DNA from: a virus
UHGV virus genome: UHGV-0193058
Reading direction: 5' to 3' (one strand)
Length of the DNA stretch: 35,805 nt
The position numbers and the translations under genes are program-made. The notes below the pieces were generated by a model. The model did no database searches, had not been told where the DNA came from, and saw only the letters and a program-made list of their open reading frames with translations. Below, piece by piece: positions 13,375 to 29,061 of this stretch (positions are counted from its first letter, which is position 1; the number at the start of each line of letters is the position of its first letter).

Positions 13375-14154
13375 TTGACACAAACACAATATTATACATT
13401 ACTTACAGAAATAGGTAAGGCTGCTATAGCAAATGCTACAGCACTCGGGACTAGAGTTGATTTTGCAAAAATAAAGGTTGGGGATGGTGGTGGAAGTGCA
13501 TATATTCCAACAGAAAATCAAACAGCACTTAAAAATGTGGTGTGGGAAAGCACATTAGAGCATGTTCAAACAGACGAAAAAAATCCTAATTGGGTAGTTA
13601 TCCAAAAAACTATAACAGGAGATACTGGAAACTTTATAATCAGGGAGGTTGGAGTATTTGATTCTAAAGACCAACTTCTCGCAGTATCTAGCTATCCCGA
13701 AACTTATAAACCTGCTCCGGATTCGGGAACAGTAAAAGAAATATTAATTAAAATTATATTAGCTGTGTCTAATGCAGCAAGTATAAATTTAAAAATAGAC
13801 CCAACAGTTGTATTAGCAACTTTAAAAGATATACAAGATTTAGACAATAAAATTGATACAACTAAAACAGAATTAACAAACAACTTAGAAACTGCTAAAA
13901 CAGAGTTAAACAATAAAATAGGTGATACAACACAACTTACTACAACAGATAAAACTAGTCTTGTTGGTGCATTAAATGAGGTAAAAACTAGCGTAGATAG
14001 TATAGAAACAACAGCAGAGAAAACAAGTTATAATAATGCAACAAGTAATCTTGCTGCTACGAATGTGCAAGGGGCGATTGATGAAGTTGTTAGAAAGATA
14101 GAAAAATTTAATGAGGTTAATATATCTATACAAAATGATATGTTACCTATTTAA
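13375..14154 (+). CDS. tail fibre protein (XkdV-like N-terminus)
   Basis: TTG start after GGAGGTGATA. The N-terminus YYTLLTEIGKAAIANATALGT...VGDGGG is typical of the shared fibre N-terminal domain, and the C-terminal half is coiled-coil-like. Confidence 0.55.
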   Translation: MTQTQYYTLLTEIGKAAIANATALGTRVDFAKIKVGDGGGSAYIPTENQTALKNVVWESTLEHVQTDEKNPNWVVIQKTITGDTGNFIIREVGVFDSKDQLLAVSSYPETYKPAPDSGTVKEILIKIILAVSNAASINLKIDPTVVLATLKDIQDLDNKIDTTKTELTNNLETAKTELNNKIGDTTQLTTTDKTSLVGALNEVKTSVDSIETTAEKTSYNNATSNLAATNVQGAIDEVVRKIEKFNEVNISIQNDMLPI

Positions 14155-14171
14155 GAGAGGAAAGTGAGAAA

Positions 14172-15452
14172 ATGCAGTCAGAATGGAATTTTGATTATAC
14201 AGGCGCAGAACAAAACGTTACATTGAAGCCTGGCAAATATAAATTAGAATGCTGGGGTGCTTGTGGAGGAGGCTGGTTTAGTGAATGGACTAAAGGCGCT
14301 AAAGGTGGTTATTCTAAAGCAGAACTTACATTAAAAAAAGAAACTATATTATATGTTTACGCTGGAGAAACTGGATGCCAAAAGTTTGAAAATAGTATTA
14401 ATAACTGGACTGGATTTAATGGAGGGGGAAGAGGTACTAATGCAGGTGCAGACCCTAAGTTTATATTATGTGGTGGAGGTGCTACTGATATAAGACTTAT
14501 TAGAGGAAGTTGGAGTAATGAACAAGGATTACTATCACGTATACTTGTTGCAGGTGGTGCAGGTGCAATTAGCAGTAGTGACTACGGCGTAGGAAATGGT
14601 GGTGGCATGGAAGGTTCAAAAGGATTTGATGGTTCTAATGCTTTTGTCACTGGAGGTACACAGTACCAAGGAGGAATAGGACTTGAAGATAAGTATAATG
14701 GTTCGTTTGGTAGAGCAAGTTCTACAGGAACAGGGCAAGGTGGAGGAGGTGGGTGGTTTGGCGGTGCGGGCGGTCTTAATTATAATGCTGCGGGCGGAAG
14801 TGGTTACGCACTAACTAAAGATAGTTATAAGCCACCTGGATATATACCAACATCTAAGTATTATCTTGATAATGTAGTCATGACTACTGGAGGTAATACT
14901 ACTAAAGCAGATGGTTATGCTAAAATAACATTACTTCAAGCATTACCGTTTTTAACAGTATCATCTTATAACTCAACTACAGCAACATTTAAAGCAGACC
15001 ACACAGACCCCACATTATTAACTAAAATAGAGTGGTTTATTGATGAGAAATTAAAAGAAACTATAACATCAAAGTTAACAATAGAAAAAACAATTAACTA
15101 TACATTAGAAGATAATGCACTACACACGATTAAAATAGTTGTTACAGACAGTTCTAATGCTACAGCAGAGAGAATTTTTACAGTTAGTAAAGGAATTGCA
15201 CCGCTTCCAACTGGCTCATCTAGCGAAGAAGTTACAAACAAATGGAGGGAAATTAAAGATTCATTTAAAACTGGTAAAACAAGTATTATAAATACTTTAG
15301 CATTAAAGAACATAGAGGCAAGCTTGAATAATACACTAGTTGAGTTATCAGAAAAGATAAAGCAGTCTTTTGATAGTTCAGATGCTAGTGTACAAGAGTT
15401 AGAAAATCAATTACTAATTGTAGAAAATGAGAAAGTGGGAGGAATTTTATAA
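14172..15452 (+). CDS. glycine-rich tail fibre / receptor-binding protein
   Basis: 426 aa with long GGxGG-rich tracts (GGGGGWFGGAGG, GGAGAISSSDYGVGNGGG), as in PBSX-like distal fibre proteins. Confidence 0.55.
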   Translation: MQSEWNFDYTGAEQNVTLKPGKYKLECWGACGGGWFSEWTKGAKGGYSKAELTLKKETILYVYAGETGCQKFENSINNWTGFNGGGRGTNAGADPKFILCGGGATDIRLIRGSWSNEQGLLSRILVAGGAGAISSSDYGVGNGGGMEGSKGFDGSNAFVTGGTQYQGGIGLEDKYNGSFGRASSTGTGQGGGGGWFGGAGGLNYNAAGGSGYALTKDSYKPPGYIPTSKYYLDNVVMTTGGNTTKADGYAKITLLQALPFLTVSSYNSTTATFKADHTDPTLLTKIEWFIDEKLKETITSKLTIEKTINYTLEDNALHTIKIVVTDSSNATAERIFTVSKGIAPLPTGSSSEEVTNKWREIKDSFKTGKTSIINTLALKNIEASLNNTLVELSEKIKQSFDSSDASVQELENQLLIVENEKVGGIL

Positions 15453-15634
15453 TGAATATAAATAATGTTGTAGTAAGAATATTGGCGGAGAGAATATTAA
15501 ACAAAGGATTGAACCCTTTAAAAAACAGACCTTTTGAGTTAGATGACGTAACTAACACAGAATACAGAAAAGCCGTAGAGGATTATATAATTAAAGAAAG
15601 TGGAGTAGTAGAAGGAGCAGAACCTACGGCGTAA
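15452..15634 (+). CDS. small XkdX-like protein
   Basis: 60-aa ORF between the fibre genes and the lysis cassette. It is translationally coupled (ATAATG overlap). Confidence 0.4.
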   Translation: MNINNVVVRILAERILNKGLNPLKNRPFELDDVTNTEYRKAVEDYIIKESGVVEGAEPTA

Positions 15635-15648
15635 GGTTCTTTTTTTAT
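15619..15648 (+). terminator. rho-independent terminator closing tail operon
   Basis: AGAACCT acggcgta AGGTTCT stem-loop followed by TTTTTTTATTT. Confidence 0.65.
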
Positions 15649-15670
15649 TTCAATTAATTAGGAGGTTTTC

Positions 15671-15901
15671 ATGAATGAAGAAGTTATAAAAGAAAAAATA
15701 AAACGAAATGAAATAAGAATAAACAGACACAGTGATGAAATAGACGAATTAAAGATAGCAAATATAGAGTCTAAAGCAGAGTTAAAAGCATTGTGTGAGA
15801 ATCTAAATTCACTTACAAGTATGTTGAAGTGGCTGATAGGAACAATGATTACAACACTAATAGGGTTCTTTATATTTGCTATTCAGAGAGGAATATTTTA
15901 A
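15671..15901 (+). CDS. XhlA-like haemolysin/holin-associated membrane protein
   Basis: 76 aa with an N-terminal coiled coil and a single C-terminal TM segment (WLIGTMITTLIGFFIFAI), as in PBSX XhlA. SD AGGAGG. Confidence 0.6.
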   Translation: MNEEVIKEKIKRNEIRINRHSDEIDELKIANIESKAELKALCENLNSLTSMLKWLIGTMITTLIGFFIFAIQRGIF

Positions 15902-15917
15902 ATTAGGAGGATAAAAG

Positions 15918-16175
15918 ATGGATAATTTAATAAGTTTTATACCAGAGCAGTTACTAATTTTAGTAGCTGCTCTTTATGTTATAGGAGCAGGTTGCAAGAA
16001 ATATAAGCAATTAGATAACAAGTATATTCCAGTAGTGTTATTGATACTTGGTATAGGTTTCTCAATATGGATGCTAGGATTAAATCCTAGTGCAGTTTTA
16101 CAGGGAATAATCTGTTGGGGAGTTGCAATAGGTATAAATCAAACTTACAAACAGTTGAAGGAGGAAAATAAATAA
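15918..16175 (+). CDS. phage holin
   Basis: 85 aa with two predicted TM helices and a charged C-terminus, immediately upstream of the amidase. SD AGGAGG. Confidence 0.7.
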   Translation: MDNLISFIPEQLLILVAALYVIGAGCKKYKQLDNKYIPVVLLILGIGFSIWMLGLNPSAVLQGIICWGVAIGINQTYKQLKEENK

Positions 16176-16987
16176 TGAAAATATGTATTACAGTAGGACA
16201 CAGTATTTTAAAAAGTGGTGCATGCACTTCTGCTGATGGGGTAGTTAACGAATACCAATACAATAAATTTCTTGCACCAGTATTAGCAGATACATTTAGA
16301 AAAGAAGGTCATAAGGCAGATGTAATAATATGCCCTGAAAAGCAGTTTAAAACTAAAGCAGAAGAAAAGATTTATAAAATACCTAGAGTTAATAGTGGAG
16401 GATATGATTTACTTATAGAGTTACATTTAAATGCAAGTAACGGTCAAGGAAAAGGTTCAGAAGTTCTATATTATAGTAATAAAGGTTTAGAATATGCAAC
16501 TAGAATATGTAATAAGCTAGGTACAGTATTTAGAAATAGAAGAGCTAAATTAGATAAAGGATTATATATCTTAAATAGTTCAAAGCCTACAGCAGTATTA
16601 ATTGAAAGTTTCTTCTGTGATAATAAAGAAGATTATGAGAAGGCTAAGAAACTTGGATATGAAGGAATGGCTAAGTTAATTGTTGAGGGTGTATTGAATA
16701 AAAATATAGGTGATGAGGGAGTCAAAGAGATGTACAAACATACAATAGTTTATAGTGGAGAAGTTGACAAAATCCCTGCAACTGTAGTTGGTTGGGGGTA
16801 TAATGATGGGAAAATATTGATATGTGATATAAAAGACTACGTACCAGGTCAGACAGAAAATTTATATATTGTTGGTGGTGGAGCATGTGAAAAGATAAGT
16901 TCTATAACAAAAGAACATTATACAATGATAAAAGGTAATGATAGATTTGATACACTTTACAAAGCGTTAGATTTTATTAAGAAATAA
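16175..16987 (+). CDS. N-acetylmuramoyl-L-alanine amidase endolysin (CD27L-like)
   Basis: The N-terminus MKICITVGHSILKSGACTSADGVVNEYQYNKF...ELHLNASNG...ESFFCDNKEDY has amidase_3 features and closely resembles the C. difficile phage CD27L endolysin. The C-terminal domain carries the GNDRFDTLYKALDFI tail. Confidence 0.9.
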   Translation: MKICITVGHSILKSGACTSADGVVNEYQYNKFLAPVLADTFRKEGHKADVIICPEKQFKTKAEEKIYKIPRVNSGGYDLLIELHLNASNGQGKGSEVLYYSNKGLEYATRICNKLGTVFRNRRAKLDKGLYILNSSKPTAVLIESFFCDNKEDYEKAKKLGYEGMAKLIVEGVLNKNIGDEGVKEMYKHTIVYSGEVDKIPATVVGWGYNDGKILICDIKDYVPGQTENLYIVGGGACEKISSITKEHYTMIKGNDRFDTLYKALDFIKK

Positions 16988-16993
16988 GTTTGT

Positions 16994-17037
16994 AGAGAGT
17001 GGTAACTATTTCATCAGTTACCACTCTCTCTTTTTTT
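16994..17037 (+). terminator. strong bidirectional-looking terminator after lysis cassette
   Basis: 14-bp perfect stem AGAGAGTGGTAACT/AGTTACCACTCTCT with an 8-nt loop, followed by TTTTTTT. Confidence 0.8.
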
Positions 17038-17223
17038 ATCCTTTTTGTTATATTCTCTTTCAAGTGCTGTTTTTTTAAAAACCCATGTCGTTCCGAATTT
17101 TTTACAGTCTACACCTTCCACAAATTTTCCGTTTCTTATATTAAGTCTTAACGTACTTTCACCTTTTTTATAAAGTTCACAAGCATCTTTTATAGAGATT
17201 AGTTCCTCAAATACATCTTTCAT
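17014..17223 (-). CDS. HTH DNA-binding protein (excisionase/MerR-like HTH_17)
   Basis: 69 aa. ISIKDACELYKKGESTLRLNIRNGKF...VFKKTALER matches the excisionase-type winged HTH. It has its own promoter (TTGTCT 17 nt TATAAT on the minus strand) and the SD AAAAGGAG. Confidence 0.55.
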   Translation of the reverse strand: MKDVFEELISIKDACELYKKGESTLRLNIRNGKFVEGVDCKKFGTTWVFKKTALEREYNKKDKKRESGN

Positions 17224-17307
17224 TTTAACAACTCCTTTTACTTATATTATAATCGCAAAAGTTTAAAAAGACAAGGGGAAAATAAGCGTAAAAGTTTAAT
17301 AAAAGTG

Positions 17308-17336
17308 TTGACTCAATAAACGTAAACGTTTATAAT
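17308..17336 (+). promoter_or_regulatory. sigma-A promoter P1 (TTGACT-17-TATAAT) with palindromic operator TAAACGTTTA
   Basis: Consensus -35/-10 with exact 17-nt spacing. The palindrome 17323-17332 overlaps the -10 element. Confidence 0.75.
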
Positions 17337-17372
17337 ATAATTAAAGAAAGATAAACAAAGGGGGATATAAAA

Positions 17373-17822
17373 ATGGAAAAATTCATCAGACTTGATTACG
17401 ATAAGGGCTTTAGAGGAAAAGAACATGTAAGTTCTGCAACTGGAGATGGAGAACATTTTGAAGCAGGAATTAGTTGTTATAAAATAAGTAAAGAAAAATG
17501 TGTTGATGCTATAATAAATTTATGTGAATATTGGTTTGAATTTGCAGGTGAATGTCAATTCAAAGATTTCGATATAAATATTTTTGAAGGATGCTATGTA
17601 GGTGAGGGGGCTAGTTACGAAGATTTAGCCACTTGTGAGAAACATTTATATACTGTAGATGGTTCTTTATTCAATGAAGTTTATGACTTATATTATATGC
17701 ATGAAACATACTTAGAAGAAAATGGAAATGTTGAAGAATTAGAAGAAAACTACAAAGATGAATATATAACAACAGAAGAATTTGAAACTAAGATAAAAGA
17801 AATGTTTATAAAATATCTGTAG
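17373..17822 (+). CDS. hypothetical acidic Cys-containing protein (moron)
   Basis: 149-aa ORF with SD AAAGGGGGA, downstream of P1. No recognisable family. Confidence 0.5.
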   Translation: MEKFIRLDYDKGFRGKEHVSSATGDGEHFEAGISCYKISKEKCVDAIINLCEYWFEFAGECQFKDFDINIFEGCYVGEGASYEDLATCEKHLYTVDGSLFNEVYDLYYMHETYLEENGNVEELEENYKDEYITTEEFETKIKEMFIKYL

Positions 17823-17833
17823 GAAGTGAAAAC

Positions 17834-18469
17834 ATGAAAATTGGAGATAAATTTGAAAATCTTACAATACTAGATATAGAACAAAAAAATGGCAGGAAAT
17901 ATTGCTTATGTAAATGTAGTAATTGCAATAATGAAAAATGGATAAGGGCAGATAGTTTAAAAAGAATAAAAGCATGTGGATGCATGAAAAGTAACACACA
18001 GTTTAAACAAAATGATTTAACAGGCAAAAAGTTTGGCAGATTAACAGCAATAAAGAACACTAATAAAAAAGCTAAAAGTGGTCACTATATTTGGGCTTGT
18101 AAGTGTGATTGTGGAAATGAGATTAAGACAGCAGAAAACAATTTAACTACTGGTAGAACTAAATCATGTGGATGCTTGAAAAAGGAATCTAATATAAAAA
18201 ATGCAAAGATAGCGTTAAAAGTACATAAAGAAAAAAATATTATTGATGATACAAATCTATCTATTATAAAAAAGACAGAAGCGTATTCTAATTCAAAAAC
18301 TAAAATTAGAGGCGTTTCTTGGAATAAAGAAAAAAGAAAATACTGTGCACAAATAGAATTTAAGAAAATGCATTATAATCTAGGATACTATGACAACATA
18401 AGAGAAGCAGAAGAAGCATACAAAAAAGCCAAAGAAAAATTCTTAAAAGAAATAAACGGAAAAGTTTAA
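17834..18469 (+). CDS. AP2-domain DNA-binding protein with two N-terminal Cys-rich zinc-ribbon-like modules
   Basis: The C-terminus RGVSWNKEKRKYCAQIEFKKMHYNLGYYDNIREAEEAYKKAKEKF is AP2/ERF-like. The N-terminus has two 45-aa repeats, each with a GxKFxxLT...CxC..C.NE...CGC pattern. Confidence 0.6.
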   Translation: MKIGDKFENLTILDIEQKNGRKYCLCKCSNCNNEKWIRADSLKRIKACGCMKSNTQFKQNDLTGKKFGRLTAIKNTNKKAKSGHYIWACKCDCGNEIKTAENNLTTGRTKSCGCLKKESNIKNAKIALKVHKEKNIIDDTNLSIIKKTEAYSNSKTKIRGVSWNKEKRKYCAQIEFKKMHYNLGYYDNIREAEEAYKKAKEKFLKEINGKV

Positions 18470-18476
18470 AAAACTA

Positions 18477-18505
18477 TTGACTTAATAAACGCAAACGTTT
18501 ATAAT
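18477..18505 (+). promoter_or_regulatory. promoter P2, near-identical copy of P1 cassette
   Basis: TTGACT-17-TATAAT with the AAACGTTT palindrome. The 45-bp block TTGACTyAATAAACGyAAACGTTTATAATATAATTAAAGAAAG is shared with P1. Confidence 0.75.
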
Positions 18506-18545
18506 ATAATTAAAGAAAGAAATAATCAAAAGGAGGATATAAAAA

Positions 18546-18860
18546 ATGAATAAACAAAAAGCTAGAAGATTTTTAAGAGTTATAGATATGAATATAGATA
18601 AAATAGAAGAAGAAGCTATAAAAGCTTTTAAAGAAAGTTGTTTAATCAAAGAGACTAATGATATAAAAATTTATATCGATATACAAGGAAAAGTTGAAGC
18701 GATAGCAGTTCAAACTTGGGCTAAACTTTTAGATGATGACAAAGAAATTAATATTTTCACATTAAATCAAGCACCAACTCATTTAGACGATATGTTTGGA
18801 GAAATTTACCATGTAAATGATTATGAAGAGTTCGAAAAATGGTGTGAAAAAGGAAGATAA
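18546..18860 (+). CDS. hypothetical protein (moron)
   Basis: 104 aa with SD AAAGGAGGA, downstream of P2. Confidence 0.5.
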   Translation: MNKQKARRFLRVIDMNIDKIEEEAIKAFKESCLIKETNDIKIYIDIQGKVEAIAVQTWAKLLDDDKEINIFTLNQAPTHLDDMFGEIYHVNDYEEFEKWCEKGR

Positions 18861-18864
18861 AAGT

Positions 18865-19017
18865 TTGAATTGGGATAGTTATGAAAAATTCAATAAAGAA
18901 AATTTCGAAGAAATCGCTGAAAGAAATATAGATGATAGCTCATCAGCTTTTTTAGAAAAATTACGTGAAGGCATTGAAAATTGTAAACAAGAATTACAAA
19001 ATATAGTTGAAAATTAA
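18865..19017 (+). CDS. small hypothetical protein
   Basis: TTG start 9 nt after AAGGAAG, 50 aa (MNWDSYEKF...). The longer track ORF from 18817 overlaps the previous gene. Confidence 0.3.
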   Translation: MNWDSYEKFNKENFEEIAERNIDDSSSAFLEKLREGIENCKQELQNIVEN

Positions 19018-19052
19018 GTAGAAGAGTATTATTATTAATGTATATAGTATCG

Positions 19053-19284
19053 CTTTTGGTTAACTATAAGGGATTTAAAATATTTTTTAATTTATTTAGA
19101 AATGATATTGTAATAAGAATTTTCAGATTAACTATGAGGGATTTAAATGTCAATTTAATTTATAGAGAAATAATATAATATCAAATTATTTTATATTAAC
19201 TATAAGGGATTTAAATATCAATTTAATCTATATCTATATGATATAATATCACATTATTTTTAGATTAACTATACGGAAATAAAA
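19053..19284 (+). repeat. CRISPR-repeat-like 68-bp tandem array (3 units plus degenerate terminal unit), no cas genes
   Basis: Units start near 19053, 19121, 19189 and 19257. Each has a 29-nt segment TTTTnnnnTTAACTATrAGGGATTTAAAT. Unit 3 (ATTTTATATTAACTAT...) closely resembles the C. difficile type I-B repeat GTTTTATATTAACTAT.... The 39-nt intervening segments are about 80% identical to each other. Confidence 0.6.
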
Positions 19285-19727: not shown

Positions 19728-19752
19728 CTAAACAATATAAATATAATATTAT

Positions 19753-20085
19753 TTACTTTTTCTTAGTCTTATTTCTTCTATTTCTCTCATTGTATATATT
19801 TAAATTCTCTTCTTTTATAGTGACATCAGATAAAATTTGAGTTAGTATATCACTTAATAATTTACTAACGTCGCTGTTCATATCAATAGAAAAAGATTTT
19901 AATTTGTTTACAAGTTCTTCATCAAGCGTTGCACTCATAGTCACTTTTTTACTTTTCTTATTAACTAAATTATATATGTTTAATGTCTTATTGTCTGTAG
20001 TTGTAGAATCATTTTGTGCGATTGTTCCATTTTTCAAAATCGGTTTTTCCTTATCAACTAAAAGGTCTCTGTTGAAACTTGGCAT
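19753..20085 (-). CDS. ribbon-helix-helix partition protein (ParG/CopG-like)
   Basis: 110 aa with a disordered basic N-terminus and the RHH motif KKVTMSATLDEELVNKLKSFSIDMNSDVSKLLSDILTQ. Its start is fused to the parA stop (TAGATG). Confidence 0.6.
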   Translation of the reverse strand: MPSFNRDLLVDKEKPILKNGTIAQNDSTTTDNKTLNIYNLVNKKSKKVTMSATLDEELVNKLKSFSIDMNSDVSKLLSDILTQILSDVTIKEENLNIYNERNRRNKTKKK

Positions 20086-20895
20086 CTATAACACTCCTTT
20101 TCTTTTCAATTCTTCTAACATATTAGTAAATTCCTGTCTGCTGAAATGTTCTTTAGTTATTTTTGTATAATCTGTTAGAGATAGTTTTTTTAATAGTGCC
20201 TTCTCTATAAACTCATTTTTTCTAATGTATGTATCTAACATAATATCTCTCATATCGTTAAACCCTTCCAGATAAGAATCGAAAGTATCGCTAATTTGAG
20301 TTTTCTTCTTCTCAAATCCAACTAAAATAGTACTTTTTATATTATCCTCCTTATCAAAATAGGTTCTATCAACATCCCAGAGTTGTTTAAATAATTCTGC
20401 TCCTCTTAAAGAAGAAATGTTTTTATCTTGAATTGGAATAATTATACTATCTGCTAAGAAAAGCACATTTTTAGCTGTCAAATCGTAGCGTGGAGATAAA
20501 TCACAGATAATATAATCATACTCACTCAAAGTATTAAAGTTTTGCATGTACCAGCGAGCTAAAAATTTTTCTCTGGCTGGTAAAGGTGATAGCTCTTGTT
20601 CAAATCTAGCCATTTGTATGTCAGAAGGAATTAAGTCTACATTAATGTAATTTTCATTAGGTGACTTGACTATTGCATCATTAGCACTAATCCCTTTTAA
20701 AATATCTAATGTAGTATTATCATTATGATTTATTTCATAAACATATTGTGTTAGATTTGCTTGTACATCTAAGTCCCATAAGAGAATTTTTTTATCTTTA
20801 TCTTTTGCAAGTTCATACGCTGTCATTATAGACGTTGTTGTCTTATAGATACCTCCTTTTATGTTAAAGTACGTAAGTAGCTTTGTATTAGCCAT
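20086..20895 (-). CDS. parA: ParA/Soj-family partition ATPase
   Basis: Deviant Walker A FNIKGGIYKTTTS, ...LLWDLDVQAN, and Walker B-like ICDLSP. ATG 20895 (MANTK...) lies 6 nt after GAGGTGGAG. Confidence 0.8.
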   Translation of the reverse strand: MANTKLLTYFNIKGGIYKTTTSIMTAYELAKDKDKKILLWDLDVQANLTQYVYEINHNDNTTLDILKGISANDAIVKSPNENYINVDLIPSDIQMARFEQELSPLPAREKFLARWYMQNFNTLSEYDYIICDLSPRYDLTAKNVLFLADSIIIPIQDKNISSLRGAELFKQLWDVDRTYFDKEDNIKSTILVGFEKKKTQISDTFDSYLEGFNDMRDIMLDTYIRKNEFIEKALLKKLSLTDYTKITKEHFSRQEFTNMLEELKRKGVL

Positions 20896-20904
20896 TTTCT
20901 CCAC

Positions 20905-23377: not shown

Positions 23378-25531
23378 ATGAAAAATAATATAAATAAATT
23401 ATTTCTAGAAGAATGCAACGCTGAAAGGGCAGAACATGAAAAAGAAAATTATTCTGAATTTAATAGACATGAAATATATGAAATAAAAAAATATATAGAT
23501 GAAAAACCGCTTGGAATTAGAACAGCTATAGCCAATGCAGATAATGGAGGAAAAACCTTATTTATTGCACCAACAGGAGCAGGAAAAAGTTATAGCTTTA
23601 TAAATACATTAAAAAAATTAAAAACTAAAGCATTATTTATACTTCCTAACGCTTCTAATGTAGAGCAAGCAATGCACGAATACAACATAGCTGGTGCATA
23701 TGATAAGATACCTGCTAAACAAGCTTTAGAGAACAATAATCTAGCAGTAATGACCTGGGACAAGACTGAACAGCTCATAGATGTAGACTTAAGAGAATAC
23801 ATAATCGTAGTTGATGAAATACATCAAACTTATACAGACAGCTATAGAGGGAAAGCAATAAAAAATTTAAACAATATCATGTCTAAGTGTAAAGGAAGAA
23901 TAGATATAACAGCAACACCAACGAAACTAGAATTTGAAATATATGACTACATAATAGAGTACACTCAAAAACAAAAAACAGAATATGATGTCAAGTTATA
24001 TAATGATTTTGATAATAAAAATTTTACAGAAATAATTAATATAATAAATAAGTCAAACAATAGTGCCATGCTAATGAATGATATATCAACTCTTGAGTTC
24101 ATAAGAGATTCAGTAAACAAAAATGCGGGAGTTGTATATGCAGATGGGAAAGAAGAAAATGAGTTGTACAGTAGAATAGTTAAAAATTCAGATATGAAAG
24201 GCTACGAAACGCTTTTAAATACAACAACAATTTTGGCAGGTGTAAATATAAATAACAAAGATATTACAGATATAATTATCGTTAATATAAAAGATGTTGG
24301 GGCTATAAAACAATATGTTGCAAGGTTTAGAAACTTAAAAAAAGCAAATATACACATATTCAATAAATACAAAGAAGAGTGTAATGTCTATAAAATAGAA
24401 TGGTTGGTTGATAAAAATATAGAAAAAGCAACTATCTTAAAAGATGCTTATAACAAAGTATCTAAACATACCCTAATGTTTGAAACGGTTGGGATAAATG
24501 CTACACCAATTCGAATTGATTCAAATGTTTATTACTGTATGAAAGACAATTGTTACAAAGTAGATAAACTGTATATAAAAAGCCAAATTTACAGTAACTA
24601 TTACAACACAAGAACAATACAAAGTTTTAAAGTTTTATTAGAAGAATACTTCGATAATGTTAATATAACTGATGCTAAAGAAATTGAAACAAATGAAAAA
24701 GAATTAAAAGAATATAAAAAAGTTGTAAAAGAAATTAAAGAAGCAACAAGAAATATTTTAAAAGAACATAAAGAAATTTTGGTAGGTTATAGACAGATTA
24801 AAAGCAATTCTAAGAGCTTTTCACTAATGCAGTATCATAATGATATGAAACTAAGTTTAAAAGGGTGCTTAGAGGCTTACAGAGCGCATGATATACATAA
24901 TTTAGTAAAGAAAAGTAAAAGTAATAGTATGTTAGAACTATATTCTAACTATGTGCTAGATAATAAATTTGATTTAGACCTTGCGTGGAAATTAGCAAAT
25001 ACAGAAAATAGAAAGCGTGGAACAATATTTAACAAGATAAATACTTTGATATATAGAGAATTAAAAGAAGAATATCCAGAGTTTTTAAATGATGAACTTA
25101 TTCAAGTTACAGTATTTAATTATATAGACAAATTATTTGGAATTGGAACATCTTATACAAAATTGCATTTACAAGAGTTAAGTGACGATTTAAGAACAAT
25201 TCTAGGAGAAAATTGGAACTTAACAACTGAAAAAATAGGTTGCATATTGAACGAAATTTTTAAAATAGAAAGTAAAAATCATAGATGTGGTACACACTTA
25301 GAAAATATGTTTTTTTATAAAAATATAAATCCTAAGTGTGTACCATGTGAAAAAAATAGAGTTAGAATTTATAAAATCGAAAGATATGTAACTATAGATG
25401 ACATAAAAAAAGATTTAGAATTAGACGAAAAAGATAAGAGTTTAGAACATGCTATAAAACATACAAAAGATAGAATGTTAAATTCTTTAGATGAAGAGGA
25501 AAAACTATTGTTACTAAAAGGTTTTATGTAA
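23378..25531 (+). CDS. SF2 (DExH) helicase-domain protein with ~390-aa Cys-rich C-terminal region of unknown function
   Basis: Walker A IAPTGAGKSY, motif II VVDEIH, motif III ITATPT. The C-terminal half has Cys clusters (CMKDNCYKVD, HRCGTHLENMFFYKNINPKCVPCEKN). SD AAGGGGGA. Confidence 0.7.
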   Translation: MKNNINKLFLEECNAERAEHEKENYSEFNRHEIYEIKKYIDEKPLGIRTAIANADNGGKTLFIAPTGAGKSYSFINTLKKLKTKALFILPNASNVEQAMHEYNIAGAYDKIPAKQALENNNLAVMTWDKTEQLIDVDLREYIIVVDEIHQTYTDSYRGKAIKNLNNIMSKCKGRIDITATPTKLEFEIYDYIIEYTQKQKTEYDVKLYNDFDNKNFTEIINIINKSNNSAMLMNDISTLEFIRDSVNKNAGVVYADGKEENELYSRIVKNSDMKGYETLLNTTTILAGVNINNKDITDIIIVNIKDVGAIKQYVARFRNLKKANIHIFNKYKEECNVYKIEWLVDKNIEKATILKDAYNKVSKHTLMFETVGINATPIRIDSNVYYCMKDNCYKVDKLYIKSQIYSNYYNTRTIQSFKVLLEEYFDNVNITDAKEIETNEKELKEYKKVVKEIKEATRNILKEHKEILVGYRQIKSNSKSFSLMQYHNDMKLSLKGCLEAYRAHDIHNLVKKSKSNSMLELYSNYVLDNKFDLDLAWKLANTENRKRGTIFNKINTLIYRELKEEYPEFLNDELIQVTVFNYIDKLFGIGTSYTKLHLQELSDDLRTILGENWNLTTEKIGCILNEIFKIESKNHRCGTHLENMFFYKNINPKCVPCEKNRVRIYKIERYVTIDDIKKDLELDEKDKSLEHAIKHTKDRMLNSLDEEEKLLLLKGFM

Positions 25532-25645
25532 AAAGTCCAGTATTAGAACATATCTTTTTTATAAAAATATAAATCCCAATACTGGAACCAAAGAAAAAAA
25601 GAATTTGAATTAATAGAACAATTAGAAATTTACATCATAAAAAGG

Positions 25646-25678
25646 CCGTAGGGTTAGGATTTTGACCCTGCGATTTTT
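25646..25678 (+). terminator. intrinsic terminator after helicase gene
   Basis: CGTAGGGT taggattttg ACCCTGCG followed by ATTTTTT. Confidence 0.6.
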
Positions 25679-25888
25679 TGTGTAAGAGAATTCAATATTT
25701 TTGAATTGGAATTATTTCCTAGAGGTAAATTTTGTTAAAAAGTACTATTGTTGCAGTATAAATGTTTAATTATAACAAAGAACCGTACATATGTTCTTGT
25801 AATATTGAACAAGAGGGAGTATAATATTATTTAGAAAATACATTTAAACTATTTGATTTATTACTTTTTAGGGGGGGAGTGGATTTAT

Positions 25889-26025
25889 TTGTTAGAAGAA
25901 GAAAAAGATATTGAAGATGAGTTGATAGAAGAAATAGTTACAATTATTAAAAAACTTGATTTAAATAAAGATAGAAGAACTTTATTGATGATAAAGTGGT
26001 ACATATTAGGAATGTTGAAATAAAA
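25889..26025 (+). CDS. small acidic protein (44 aa), TTG start
   Basis: SD GGGGGGGAGTGG 6 nt before the TTG. It is convergent with the repressor gene and shares the 26021-26053 hairpin. Confidence 0.35.
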
Positions 26026-26053
26026 AAAGAAGAATAGCGATTGCTATTCTTCT
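26021..26053 (-). terminator. terminator for XRE repressor gene (11-bp stem AGAAGAATAGC/GCTATTCTTCT)
   Basis: The hairpin is followed on the minus strand by TTTTTTTA. It overlaps the repressor stop codon. Confidence 0.7.
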
Positions 26054-26434
26054 ATTTCTAGTAAAGAATCAAGCATATTATTAAATAAGGCTAAATATTT
26101 TTTATTTAGTTTAAACATCTTTAATATTAATTCTCTTTCTAATTCATTTTCTGTCTTACTTAACTTCCCAATTAATTGAGCAAATTCTTTATCTGTATCT
26201 TTTGCGCAAAACATATTCCCTATTCCATTCGCTAGCCAATCATATGAAACACTCCAAGCGTCACAAATGTCTTTCAGTGTTCTATTGCTTGCATTTCTTT
26301 TACCATTCTCGATAAGTGATATTGTATTTCTTTTCAGTTTTAATCTTTCAGCAAAATCTTCTTGACTTAATTGCAACTCAATTCTTAATTCCCTTATGCG
26401 TTTGCTTTGAGGGCTTATATTATTCATGTCCATT
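26044..26434 (-). CDS. XRE-family HTH repressor (cI-like)
   Basis: Start moved to MDMNNISPQSK... (SD GGAGGT at 26441-26445). HTH segment IRELRIELQLSQEDFAERLKLKRNTISLIENGKRNAS, with a small C-terminal domain. The N-terminal 21 aa of the track ORF overlap the IS right end. Confidence 0.75.
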
Positions 26435-26449
26435 TTATACCTCCATATT

Positions 26450-26620
26450 GACACACTCCCCATAGCTAAAGCAAGGGGATTCTCGGTGGCTAACACACTT
26501 ATTTATACTTAAACAGTACAACAGAGGTGGTTACAAAGCCAAGCTACTTCGGACGGTGTCTTCGCCACTACTACCTTAAAGTTATTCGCCCACACATGGC
26601 TCAAACGGTAGATACTTTTA
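26450..26620 (-). ncRNA. putative omega-RNA (right-end RNA) scaffold of TnpB
   Basis: A ~150-nt segment immediately 3' of tnpB on the minus strand is markedly more GC-rich and structured than the surrounding DNA (...GGCGAAGACACCGTCCGAAGTAGCTTGGC..., CCCCTTGCTTTAGCTATGGGGG). This is the expected location for the TnpB guide RNA. Confidence 0.45.
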
Positions 26621-27764
26621 AATTTATTGGTTGCTTATGATTTATTCTAAAATCTACTAAACCATATTTATGCTTTTTATTTAAAATATTCCAAGCACCA
26701 ACTATATCTCTATGAGTTTCATAACCACAAGTACAACTATAAGTTCTACCAGTTGGTTTGTGTTTTTTAGAACACTTTGGGCAAGTTTGAGAAGTGTAGT
26801 TTTCTTTAACTAACTTAACTTCAATACCTTGCTCTTTTGCTTTATATTTTATATAGTCCTTTATTCGACCATACTCCATTTGAGATATTTTCTGTCTATT
26901 AACTCTGTTTAATCTTTTCTTTTTCTTAGTATCTTTTTCAACCCCTTTTATATCCCCAAGAACTATTTCACATACCTTCTGCTCTACACAAAAGTCTATA
27001 AACTTTCTAGTTGTTTGATGATATAAATTCATTAACTGATTATCTGTTTTACTTCTTATCTTATTTTTTAATCTCCATAACTTCTTTGATTGTCTACTAC
27101 CTTTTTTACATTTACTTAATCTTTTAGATATATAAGCATACATCTTATTTCTAAATTGTTTAATACTTCTGCCTTCTCTATTAGATAGAATAAGCCCTAC
27201 ACCTTCATTTGTTACACTAGCTATCGAATGTATTTCCCCTAAGTCTACACCTACGGTATTAGTGCCTTTGGCTACAACTCCATTTAATTCATTGTCAAAA
27301 GTGTAGTATAAATAATATCCATTTCGCCATACTATTTCAGCAGTTTTTATATTCTCAACATTAAAATCTAATTCTAAATACCTGCCTTTTGACATTGATA
27401 ATTTTAAGTTGCCTTTAGCATTTCTATTAATAGCACTAGCTTTAAAAGGTATTATATAAAATTTCTTAGTCTTGTATGGATATTTTGCTTTAGTATTACC
27501 TTTTTTTCTTAATTCTGATATAGTCTTTCTATTTGCATCAAATTTATCTGATATAGCTTGAATAGTTTGACTATGAAGATTGTACTTACCTTTGATTAAC
27601 TTTTGTATATCATTCTTTTTAATCCATTGTTTATGTTCAAAATAGTATTCTTTAGATAAGTTAACTATGTAGTTCCAACAGTTAGCACTTTCCATTTGCT
27701 TTTCCCTTACTAATTCAAATTGTGTTCTAGTTAGGTTTAATTTCACTCTATGAGTTTTTATCAT
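26601..27764 (-). CDS. tnpB: TnpB (OrfB) RNA-guided endonuclease-family protein
   Basis: 387 aa. The C-terminal zinc finger CPKCSKKHKPTGRTYSCTCGYETHRD and the RuvC-like region (VGVDLGEIH...) are typical of IS605 OrfB. Confidence 0.85.
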   Translation of the reverse strand: MIKTHRVKLNLTRTQFELVREKQMESANCWNYIVNLSKEYYFEHKQWIKKNDIQKLIKGKYNLHSQTIQAISDKFDANRKTISELRKKGNTKAKYPYKTKKFYIIPFKASAINRNAKGNLKLSMSKGRYLELDFNVENIKTAEIVWRNGYYLYYTFDNELNGVVAKGTNTVGVDLGEIHSIASVTNEGVGLILSNREGRSIKQFRNKMYAYISKRLSKCKKGSRQSKKLWRLKNKIRSKTDNQLMNLYHQTTRKFIDFCVEQKVCEIVLGDIKGVEKDTKKKKRLNRVNRQKISQMEYGRIKDYIKYKAKEQGIEVKLVKENYTSQTCPKCSKKHKPTGRTYSCTCGYETHRDIVGAWNILNKKHKYGLVDFRINHKQPINLKVSTV

Positions 27765-28171
27765 TTCTTTGTCCTAACTTGTTGATTTTCTATATATTGT
27801 TTAACTACTTCTAAACTCACAGAACCAACAGTACCTACAAAATAGCTATTAGTCCACATGCTAGGCATACTAGACTTTAAATGTGGAAAGTTCTCTCTTA
27901 ATACTCTCGAACTAAAGCCTTTTAAACCTTTTACTACTTTATGAATTCCATATTGAGGGTCACAAGATATTAATAAGTGCACATGTTCTTTATCAGTTTC
28001 CATTTCTATTATTTCTGCTCCAAGTTCATCTGCTTTATATGGTAGTATTTCTTTTAACATCTTTTCAACTTCGCCAACTAAAACAGGTTTACGATACTTA
28101 GGGCAAAATACAATATGATATTTGCAATCATAAACTATATTTTTGTTAGATTTATACATAAAAACTAACAC
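27761..28171 (-). CDS. tnpA: IS200-like Y1 (HUH) transposase TnpA
   Basis: 136 aa with the HUH motif EHVHLLIS and catalytic Tyr context WTNSYFVGTVG. SD AGGAGGTG. Confidence 0.85.
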   Translation of the reverse strand: MLVFMYKSNKNIVYDCKYHIVFCPKYRKPVLVGEVEKMLKEILPYKADELGAEIIEMETDKEHVHLLISCDPQYGIHKVVKGLKGFSSRVLRENFPHLKSSMPSMWTNSYFVGTVGSVSLEVVKQYIENQQVRTKK

Positions 28172-28298
28172 CTCCTAAATATAGGGTATCAGTAGCGGTA
28201 TTAGATTACAAGCATTATTCTAACTTTTTTTATATTAAGACCTTACCTTTCATCCCTACACCTAAAGGAGAGGGCTTTTCGGCAATTTTATTGTAATA

Positions 28299-28390
28299 AT
28301 TATAAACTAAATATGCTTACAAGTCAACAAGAAATAAGATGGAAAAAAACTTACATTATGGTTGACTTGTAAGCAAAAATATTATATACT
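28299..28390. promoter_or_regulatory. divergent consensus promoters with a 13-bp inverted-repeat operator (genetic-switch-like)
   Basis: Leftward promoter TTGACT(28327-28322)-17-TATAAT(28304-28299) and rightward promoter TTGACT(28362-28367)-17-TATACT(28385-28390). The inverted repeat CTTACAAGTCAAC (28316-28328) / GTTGACTTGTAAG (28361-28373) spans both -35 boxes. Confidence 0.6.
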
Positions 28391-28424
28391 TGCATTACAG
28401 GTCAACATAAGAGAGGTGGGCAAG

Positions 28425-28562
28425 ATGCAAGATATTAATAATTTAAGAAAAAGTATTTTAGAAAAAGTTAGTGTGCTTAATGAGAATAAACTTAAAATTG
28501 CAATTTTGAAACTTGACACGCTATATGAAGCGCAAGAGATTGAAGAAAGAGAAATTAAATAA
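28425..28562 (+). CDS. small early protein (45 aa)
   Basis: ATG 28425 (MQDINNLRK...) with SD AGAGAGGTGGG, first gene of the rightward early transcript. Confidence 0.45.
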   Translation: MQDINNLRKSILEKVSVLNENKLKIAILKLDTLYEAQEIEEREIK

Positions 28563-28626
28563 AAAGTGTACTTGACGGCTACACTAAAAAATCTAATTTA
28601 AAAAAACTAAAGGAAAAGGTGAGCTT

Positions 28627-29061
28627 ATGTATATTGAAAATATAGAAGAATTAAAAGAGTTAATTGAGCTTTTTGGAGTTGTAGAAGCGAAGAGTGAAAA
28701 CGTAGTTGCGTTTGAAGAAGTTGAAAGTTTAGACTCTTTCACAGAAGAAAATGCAAAGAAAGCATTAGATATATTAAATAAGCATAAACAAGAGAATAAA
28801 AAAAGATATAGAGATTTCTTTGAATTGAAAGAATGGATTAACGGAGATGAAGAACGAAAGCAAATATTTGCGGATATTGCTATTTGTGAAAGATGTAATA
28901 AAATAGTTGCTAATTCTGCAATGTTAACCTCGTTTCCTATCTTAGCAAAATATGATGAGAATCGAAGTGTTTTTGAACAGTTGGAAACTGTTGCTATATG
29001 CCCAGACTGCTTGATGTTTATAACTAGAGTATATGAGTCGTTATTTGATTTCGAAGGTTAG
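28627..29061 (+). CDS. hypothetical early protein with C-terminal CxxC...CPDC zinc-binding motif
   Basis: 144 aa with SD AAAGGTGAG. Motifs ICERCNKIV and AICPDCLMF. Confidence 0.5.
   Translation: MYIENIEELKELIELFGVVEAKSENVVAFEEVESLDSFTEENAKKALDILNKHKQENKKRYRDFFELKEWINGDEERKQIFADIAICERCNKIVANSAMLTSFPILAKYDENRSVFEQLETVAICPDCLMFITRVYESLFDFEG

Follow-up and report, generated by a model that had tools for sequence, protein, structure and literature searches.

Can a prophage switch tolerate a mobile element between its repressor gene and the promoter that serves it? This question is raised by UHGV-0193058, a viral genome of 35,805 nucleotides (hereafter the window, meaning this whole stretch), in which an insertion sequence (IS) of the IS200/IS605 family, carrying tnpA and tnpB, lies between an XRE-family helix-turn-helix (HTH) repressor gene and the phage promoter and operators. 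It represents, in full, the circular genome of a Clostridioides difficile myophage of the phiCD506 type. The position of the IS had been proposed in an initial annotation of the DNA, and it is borne out by the empty site in phiCD506 and by the intact ends of the element. A recent, IS608-like insertion has placed tnpA, tnpB, a predicted omega RNA, and the repressor gene in series behind the phage promoter, and we consider it likely that the repressor is made by read-through and that the guide portion of the omega RNA targets copies of the locus that lack the IS. The coordinates of all features are collected in Table 1.

An IS-free relative defines the insertion to the base

On its minus strand, the empty site of phiCD506 reads TTGACT-17-TATAAT-TATTAC/TATGGAGGTATAAAATGGACATG, and the window carries the IS exactly at the slash. 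No target sequence was duplicated or lost, and removing positions 26448 to 28292 restores the phiCD506 site exactly; comparison with IS-free relatives, as the initial annotation had suggested, fixed both ends of the element and its TTAC target. The two IS/phage junctions fall at 28293/28292 and 26448/26447 (junction 30-mers, …TATAATTATTAC/AATAAAATTGCC… and …GAGTGTGTCAA/TATGGAGGTATAAA…). The insertion point is 6 nt past the leftward -10 box, at approximately +1 of the repressor transcript, and the other flank begins 3 nt before the Shine-Dalgarno (SD) sequence of the repressor gene.

The phage DNA on either side of the IS (left, 947 nt; right, 808 nt) is 100% identical to phiCD506. When phage records were searched with megablast, phiCD506 (99.9%) and JD032 (98%) matched both flanks but lacked the 1.85 kb between them. 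The uninterrupted site was also found in 12 C. difficile plasmids from PLSDB and in all 24 of the genome contigs that were read for the identical 129-amino-acid (aa) repressor, the look-up of which covered 24 of 1,081 index blocks. Record searches found no phage or plasmid record that spans both junctions. Scans of IMG/VR for the right-end (RE) junction, the left-end (LE) junction, and the empty site each returned 0 matches, which is uninformative about insertion frequency because IMG/VR holds no genome of this immunity type.

Since the leftward promoter lies immediately upstream of the LE and points into tnpA, it might be the IS's own left-end tnpA promoter, an alternative raised in the initial annotation. 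This reading is refuted by the empty-site comparison: the promoter (28299 to 28327) is outside the IS, which starts at 28292, it is unchanged in the IS-free phages phiCD506 and JD032, and the other IS copies, each with a different LE flank, have no such promoter in front of them.

The interrupted switch consists of an HTH repressor gene divergent from an early operon, with repeated operators that overlap both promoters. The XRE gene, whose phiCD506 counterpart is annotated as a transcriptional regulator, is the sole classic HTH repressor candidate among the window open reading frames (ORFs) scanned with Pfam or PHROGs, and we infer from the gene layout and the operators that its product is a putative maintenance repressor. 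The initial annotation was correct in placing this gene on the minus strand with an SD of its own, although its start codon begins at 26433 rather than at 26434. The leftward promoter that it had pointed out is the top promoter-like match between 25500 and 29100 in a promoter scan. The inverted repeat common to both promoters is likewise present, but it spans 14 bp rather than 13: this perfect repeat holds both -35 boxes (GCTTACAAGTCAAC at 28315 to 28328, with its complement at 28361 to 28374). The shorter operator-like repeats overlap the -35 boxes of the two promoters as well as the rightward start region, and no further site with one mismatch or fewer occurs anywhere in the window. The first rightward ORF (45 aa), at a Cro-like position, had no HTH match in Pfam.

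Two side observations concern the promoter region. The leftward and rightward promoters (28298 to 28391) are near mirror images of each other, with 36-nt arms that are 78% complementary and a perfect 14-bp core. Although TTAC is also present in each operator copy, the insertion is at the one that follows the -10 box.

The element is complete and nearly identical to chromosomal copies in C. difficile

The element is organized as LE, tnpA, tnpB, a conserved structured noncoding tail, and RE, all of which are complete. TnpA matched the NCBIfam transpos_IS200 equivalog at 154.3 bits (cutoff, 55) and Pfam Y1_Tnp at 5.5e-43, and its translation contains an H-V-H (HUH) motif and a C-terminal catalytic-type tyrosine in KQYIENQ. 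The gene had been annotated in the correct minus orientation, shared with tnpB, from a GTG at 28171 that adds four codons; the most likely start is the ATG at 28159, where gene callers place the 132-aa product in other copies. The stop codon of tnpA overlaps the start codon of tnpB (ATGA).

The LE is laid out as TTAC/AATAAAATTGCCGAAAAG-CCCTCTCC-TTTA-GGTGTAGGG, and its AAAG is invariant across copies. Across these copies, 97.6% of the cells in the LE hairpin were paired, and the 12 compensatory cells observed were reached by 0 of 500 shuffles. The RE is laid out as GAAT-CCCCTTGC-TTTA-GCTATGGGG-AGTGTGTCAA/, with TCAA ending 10 nt after the foot of the hairpin, and the RE hairpin (helices 7 and 8 of the consensus described below) also contains compensatory changes. 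TTAC precedes the LE in all nine sequence-distinct aligned copies whose 5' flank was covered, as well as in the chromosomal copies, and TCAA terminates 15 of the 16 aligned copies (the other, L031, ends in TCAT), with GTGTCAA at the RE in most of them. Single-sequence DNA folds of the LE and RE were not significant, and the minimum free energy structure of the LE missed the imperfect palindrome. Given the TnpA family match, the lack of terminal inverted repeats and of target duplication, the subterminal palindromes, and the near-identical copies elsewhere, the element is a bona fide member of the IS200/IS605 family. An IStron, the group I intron-IS605 chimera known in C. difficile, was considered and rejected: no intron match was found in Rfam, and tnpA directly follows the LE.

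IS605-group elements are abundant in C. difficile (PMC9956272). The window IS differs from the C. difficile chromosomal copies at a single nucleotide (99.9% identity), a G versus A at IS position 1809, 3 nt 5' of the GAAT in the RE. This difference of 1 nt implies that the element jumped into the phage recently, either from the chromosome of the host or from a different resident copy. In the assembly collection, ~13,000 blocks index the identical TnpB protein, with every contig shown coming from a C. difficile assembly, and copies at 98 to 100% identity occupy at least six distinct C. difficile sites. The jumbo phages phiCD211, phiCDIF1296T, and LIBA2945 carry the 1.85 kb alone at 98.2% identity (megablast), and related copies are also found in Romboutsia, Terrisporobacter, and metagenomes. 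The DNA beyond the RE differs in every copy compared.

Since C. difficile genomes contain this IS as a repeat, a multicopy chromosomal IS might have been threaded wrongly into the phage contig. One metagenome contig (L042; OJZM01000861.1) indeed joins an LE flank from one chromosomal site to an RE flank from another; it is probably a repeat-induced chimeric assembly, and this IS can thus mislead short-read assemblies. For the window, we regard such an artifact as very improbable: both junctions fall exactly at the IS termini, the target is a canonical TTAC, the two flanks join without a gap in the empty site, and the window IS has a private 1-nt difference from the chromosomal copies. A misjoin would not recreate the signature of transposition at both ends.

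Two other copies showed features of their own. At the purE/nitroreductase chromosomal site, some genomes lack 129 bp directly after the RE (L016, 5318 to 5446, versus L019, 5318). The deletion ends exactly past a downstream TTAC (…AAATTTTAC/CTTAGAGG) and so looks like a TnpA-type event using the RE and the flanking TTAC; it gives that chromosomal IS copy a different guide. In phiCD211 (L002, 5444 to 5735), a CRISPR array carried by the phage is found ~600 bp from the IS, which is itself next to genes for a Doc-like toxin and a small integrase.

TnpB fits the RuvC-II rearranged type

TnpB is full length, with Pfam matches to OrfB_IS605 and Cas12f1-like_TNB (6.5e-22) and PDB matches to Cas12f/TnpB (best, 3.8e-8), and its zinc finger (CPKC...CTC) is kept. 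The dN/dS ratio of tnpB (nonsynonymous to synonymous substitutions) is 0.06 to 0.14, indicating strong purifying selection. Residues D174 (GVDLGE, RuvC-I) and D353 (THRD, RuvC-III) align to catalytic aspartates, and the place of the canonical RuvC-II glutamate is taken by Gly270 (in CEIVLGDIKG, residues 265 to 274), which is invariant across the clade. A Glu-to-Gly change with a compensating glutamate elsewhere defines large "RuvC-II rearranged" TnpB clades (PMC10691335). TnpB of the window fits these clades, which are predicted to remain active, and the invariant E321 in VKENYTSQ is our candidate for its compensating glutamate.

The same glycine might suggest that tnpA-tnpB is an old, domesticated part of the immunity region, for example, with a nuclease-dead TnpB that regulates the switch under RNA guidance; TnpB-derived repressors encoded by phages (TldR) are known. 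We find this hard to credit, since the empty-site data, with IS-free relatives of 100% identity in the flanks, already contradict it. The IS differs from chromosomal copies by 1 nt, retains its LE and RE, and is found at many other sites, always after TTAC. TnpB also keeps both aspartates and the zinc finger in a full-length protein, and the replacement of Glu by Gly is a usual trait of a large mobile clade of "rearranged" TnpBs. The initial annotation had considered that tnpA-tnpB could be a stable ancestral feature without intact IS ends; what we found were IS-free relatives and an intact LE and RE.

A conserved tail and a predicted guide follow tnpB

The segment from 26475 to 26624 is the GC maximum of the region (43%, versus 22 to 35% around it). 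It belongs to the IS rather than to the phage backbone, the other origin that had been envisaged for it, being absent from the IS-free phages and present in every IS copy. The ~133 noncoding nt before the RE differ from those of relatives by p-distances of 0.008 to 0.17, whereas the proportion of synonymous differences (pS) in tnpB is 0.28 to 0.53 for the same pairs. From 16 sequences, RNAalifold produced a consensus of 39 pairs in 8 helices, in which 96.8% of the cells were paired and 11 pairs had compensatory changes, versus 4.0 ± 1.3 for shuffled controls; none of 500 shuffles reached 11 pairs, and slid controls gave 0 to 5. This comparative evidence supports a structured tail, which we predict to be an omega RNA.

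A 25-nt lineage-specific segment (TTTGAGCCATGTGTGGGCGAATAAC; 26581 to 26605, minus strand) sits within the loop of scaffold helix 1 and provides tnpB with its stop codon. The C. difficile copies and L034 have this segment, whose small hairpin carries a compensatory change in L034, and most relatives lack it. In a Romboutsia copy (L029, ~2644 to 2668), it is inverted and displaced to the 5' side of helix 1. The segment represents an indel/inversion polymorphism within the predicted omega RNA.

As the initial annotation had foreseen, the guide predicted from the flank beside the RE is read from the DNA abutting the repressor SD and ATG. Its length (16 to 20 nt) is taken from known TnpB systems. 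The guide sequence is unique in the window, and the 24-mer made of TTAC and the guide occurred in all 10 of the IS-free loci retrieved and nowhere in the window.

Proposed read-through and targeting of IS-free copies

In the mechanism that we favor, the intact phage promoter would fire into the IS in the sense direction and give rise to one long transcript of tnpA, tnpB, the omega RNA, and the repressor gene. As the distal gene, the repressor would be made only by read-through across 1.85 kb without a terminator-like site, since a terminator scan of the minus strand from 28299 to 26434 found none. No convincing alternative promoter was seen near the repressor gene, and promoter-like matches inside the IS were at the level of chance (21 versus 19.8 expected). 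Nor did inspection by eye or the promoter scan reveal an acceptable -35/-10 pair for a hybrid promoter spanning the RE and its flank. Should the repressor exert negative autoregulation at the -35 operator, this feedback would partly buffer the polar loss of expression.

TnpB would carve the omega RNA from the 3' part of the transcript, with the repressor SD and start codon as its guide. Together with this RNA, it would recognize TTAC followed by the guide sequence, which would be met at the donor joint left after excision, in sister episomes, and in incoming phiCD506-like phages. The IS-bearing copy itself would be protected, given that the RE ends in TCAA. Cleavage of IS-free copies, followed by recombinational repair, could then retain and spread the IS and act as a gene drive in a multicopy replicon. 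Such retention and spread have been demonstrated with other elements of the IS200/IS605 family (Meers et al., bioRxiv 10.1101/2023.03.14.532601) and on plasmids (Mears et al., PMC11870625).

Several points weigh against this mechanism. The insertion was found only in this window, and IS-free relatives number in the dozens. The maintenance role of the XRE protein is read from the gene layout and the operators, and read-through and omega RNA processing are predictions from the sequence. The covariation set for the tail is small (15 distinct sequences), many of its pairs are invariant, and two of the scaffold helices coincide with the RE DNA hairpin, which TnpA needs anyway. Single-sequence folding of the tail was no better than that of shuffled sequences (z = -0.68 and -1.03), so that of the GC-richer, structured segment originally described 3' of tnpB, the GC content, the position expected of an omega RNA, and the comparative structure stand, but the folding energy does not. 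The covariance-model search that had been recommended for the tail gave no Rfam match, either in an E value scan of 25500 to 29000 or in a gathering-threshold scan of the whole window, and no curated model thus supports or contradicts an omega RNA. Finally, the canonical RuvC-II glutamate (..MEDL..) aligns to Gly270 (LGDIKG) in two independent PDB alignments, and the activity of the rearranged clades is predicted from structural models only (PMC10691335).

The main rival to read-through is that the insertion silences the repressor by strong polarity or attenuation, in which case the window would represent a derepressed variant (clear plaque, highly inducible, or transient). It is consistent with the 1.85 kb between promoter and repressor gene, the lack of an alternative consensus promoter near that gene, and the single occurrence of the insertion among so many IS-free relatives. 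A free circular genome without host flanks could also derive from virions; however, this phage type is normally episomal, and a circular contig therefore does not imply virions. The IS is moreover co-oriented with the repressor gene, with no terminator-like site between the promoter and the gene, which is the configuration expected to survive in a lysogen, and colinearity with relatives holds over the remainder of the genome. On balance, we consider silencing unlikely and continue to favor read-through.

A more far-reaching proposal is that the insertion rewires immunity. The autoregulated promoter would couple IS activity to lysogeny, and TnpB with its omega RNA would cut IS-free homoimmune phiCD506-type genomes at the switch, providing a gene drive or superinfection exclusion in a multicopy phage-plasmid, while TnpB on the read-through transcript could occlude the repressor SD and tune induction. 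We put this forward as speculation and think it quite unlikely.

The insertion also affects gene calling. A mechanical 150-aa ORF with a GTG start (26044 to 26496, minus strand) is the repressor extended 21 codons into the RE, and an exact-protein look-up found no record of it; it is an artifact of the insertion. In annotations of this genome, the repressor should be treated as separated from its promoter and the 150-aa ORF as artifactual.

Relation to known systems

IS608 (ISHp608) of Helicobacter pylori has the same LE-tnpA-tnpB-RE order on one strand and inserts 3' of TTAC without duplication. The GAAT 5' of the RE hairpin in the window matches the GR sequence of IS608, which is likewise GAAT. 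In both elements, AAAG precedes the LE hairpin, TCAA ends 10 nt past the foot of the RE hairpin, and the subterminal palindromes are imperfect; TTAC lies 18 to 19 nt before the foot of the LE hairpin in the window versus 19 nt in IS608. The IS608 values are a TTAC 19 nt 5' of the left hairpin foot, a TCAA 10 nt 3' of the right foot, and a GL sequence of AAAG (PMC3201880). IS608 comes from a different host phylum, and its likeness to the window IS was judged on layout and ends. IS608 TnpB is among the "typical" TnpBs (PMC10691335), whereas TnpB of the window has a glycine at the canonical RuvC-II glutamate.

The chromosomal and phiCD211-type copies have the same ends and TTAC target as the window IS, and in plasmid copies the NCBI annotation names an IS200/IS605 transposase and an RNA-guided endonuclease TnpB. 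The neighbors of these copies are different (purE and a nitroreductase gene, TerD genes, or, in phiCD211, the CRISPR array), with no copy in an immunity region, and the different RE flank of each copy implies a different guide.

The TnpB homing systems described so far (ISDra2; ISGst of G. stearothermophilus; Meers et al., 2023; Mears et al., 2025) have a structured RNA that extends from after tnpB to the RE and a guide supplied by the flank, as predicted for the window IS. Also predicted to be shared are a transposon-associated motif (TAM) that equals the TnpA target motif and a target found only in IS-free copies; the replicon here is plasmid-like. Unlike those systems, the window TnpB has a catalytic site of the rearranged type and a predicted guide on a phage repressor ribosome-binding site.

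The switch itself resembles the lambda-type cI/cro region in having an XRE HTH repressor gene divergent from the early operon, back-to-back promoters, and three operator-like repeats. It differs in that the repressor is 129 aa long with no peptidase S24 among its Pfam matches, the first rightward gene lacks a detectable HTH, and the phage is episomal.

Both the element and the mechanism are already known, and the locus adds a further example of familiar biology, in which an IS already known from C. difficile has entered a phage type that is also known. Its value is that of a clean natural test case and experimental system, with base-exact junctions, an isogenic IS-free phiCD506 whose flanks are identical, an episomal replicon, and a predicted guide that falls on the ribosome-binding site of a repressor gene. 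The questions that it could serve are whether TnpB drives an IS through a phage-plasmid population, how much polarity a prophage switch tolerates, and whether RuvC-II "rearranged" TnpBs are active.

TABLE 1 Features of the IS, the immunity region, and the episomal functions in the window
Feature	Position	Strand	Basis or detail
Complete IS608-like IS200/IS605 insertion sequence, 1,845 bp	26448-28292	-	Empty-site comparison with phiCD506
TTAC target tetranucleotide, predicted TAM	28293-28296	-	Immediately 5' of LE
Left end core	28254-28292	-	18 nt ending AAAG (28278-28275), then imperfect palindrome (28274-28254)
tnpA, 132 aa, Y1 HUH transposase	27761-28159	-	ATG start with AGGAGG SD
tnpB, 387 aa, RNA-guided endonuclease family	26601-27764	-	NCBIfam guided_TnpB, 174.4 bits (cutoff, 100)
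Predicted omega-RNA scaffold	26448-26616	-	Last tnpB codons plus noncoding tail to RE
Right end core	26448-26482	-	GAAT, 26482-26479; imperfect palindrome, 26478-26458; TCAA cleavage tetranucleotide, 26451-26448
Predicted guide TATGGAGGTATAAAATGGAC, 20 nt	26447-26428	-	Directly abuts RE; contains repressor SD and ATG
Repressor SD, GGAGG	26444-26440	-	6 nt before ATG (26433-26431)
XRE-family HTH repressor gene, 129 aa	26044-26433	-	Pfam HTH_3, 3.9e-14; PHROG transcriptional regulator/repressor families
Terminator-like hairpin, bidirectional, just beyond repressor 3' end	26028-26053		11-bp stem, T-runs on both strands
Leftward (repressor) phage promoter, TTGACT-17-TATAAT	28327-28299	-	11/12 positions
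Rightward early promoter, TTGACT-17-TATACT	28362-28390	+	Promoter scan
Operator-like repeats, 12-mer TTACAAGTCAAC	28317-28328; 28361-28372; 28395-28406	+; -; +	Third copy with 1 mismatch
First early gene, 45 aa	28425-28562	+	Coding sequence in phiCD506; PHROG 8465, function unknown
ParA and adjacent small Arc-like protein	19753-20904	-	ParA: AAA_31, 4.5e-33
Xer-like tyrosine recombinase, 186 aa	32392-32952	+	Catalytic domain only

Phage genome and episomal context

Relative to phiCD506, the window is circularly permuted; it is otherwise colinear with its relatives, and host flanks are absent from it. Its structural half is nearest to phiCDHM11, 13, and 14, and its immunity and replication part is nearest to phiCD506. 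The immunity block (~21.0 to 28.56 kb) is exchanged in phiCDHM11, 13, and 14, phages that are otherwise 99% identical, and such swapping of the repressor block among near-identical phages fits a putative immunity module.

Relatives have been deposited as C. difficile plasmids of 32.6 to 36.3 kb (12 PLSDB records), and an "episomal phiCD506-like bacteriophage" has been described (PMC7250501). Together with the ParA and recombinase genes of the window, these records indicate that the replicon hosting the IS is a plasmid-like prophage. ParA, the Arc-like protein, and an Xer-like recombinase reduced to its catalytic domain are traits of plasmid-prophages rather than of an integrating phage.

The phiCD506 region that holds a second HTH gene (19745 to 20227) had no megablast match in the window. 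The tail-fiber, lysis, and accessory region (~14034 to 19256) is mosaic relative to phiCD506 and includes an HNH endonuclease gene at 17834 to 18469.

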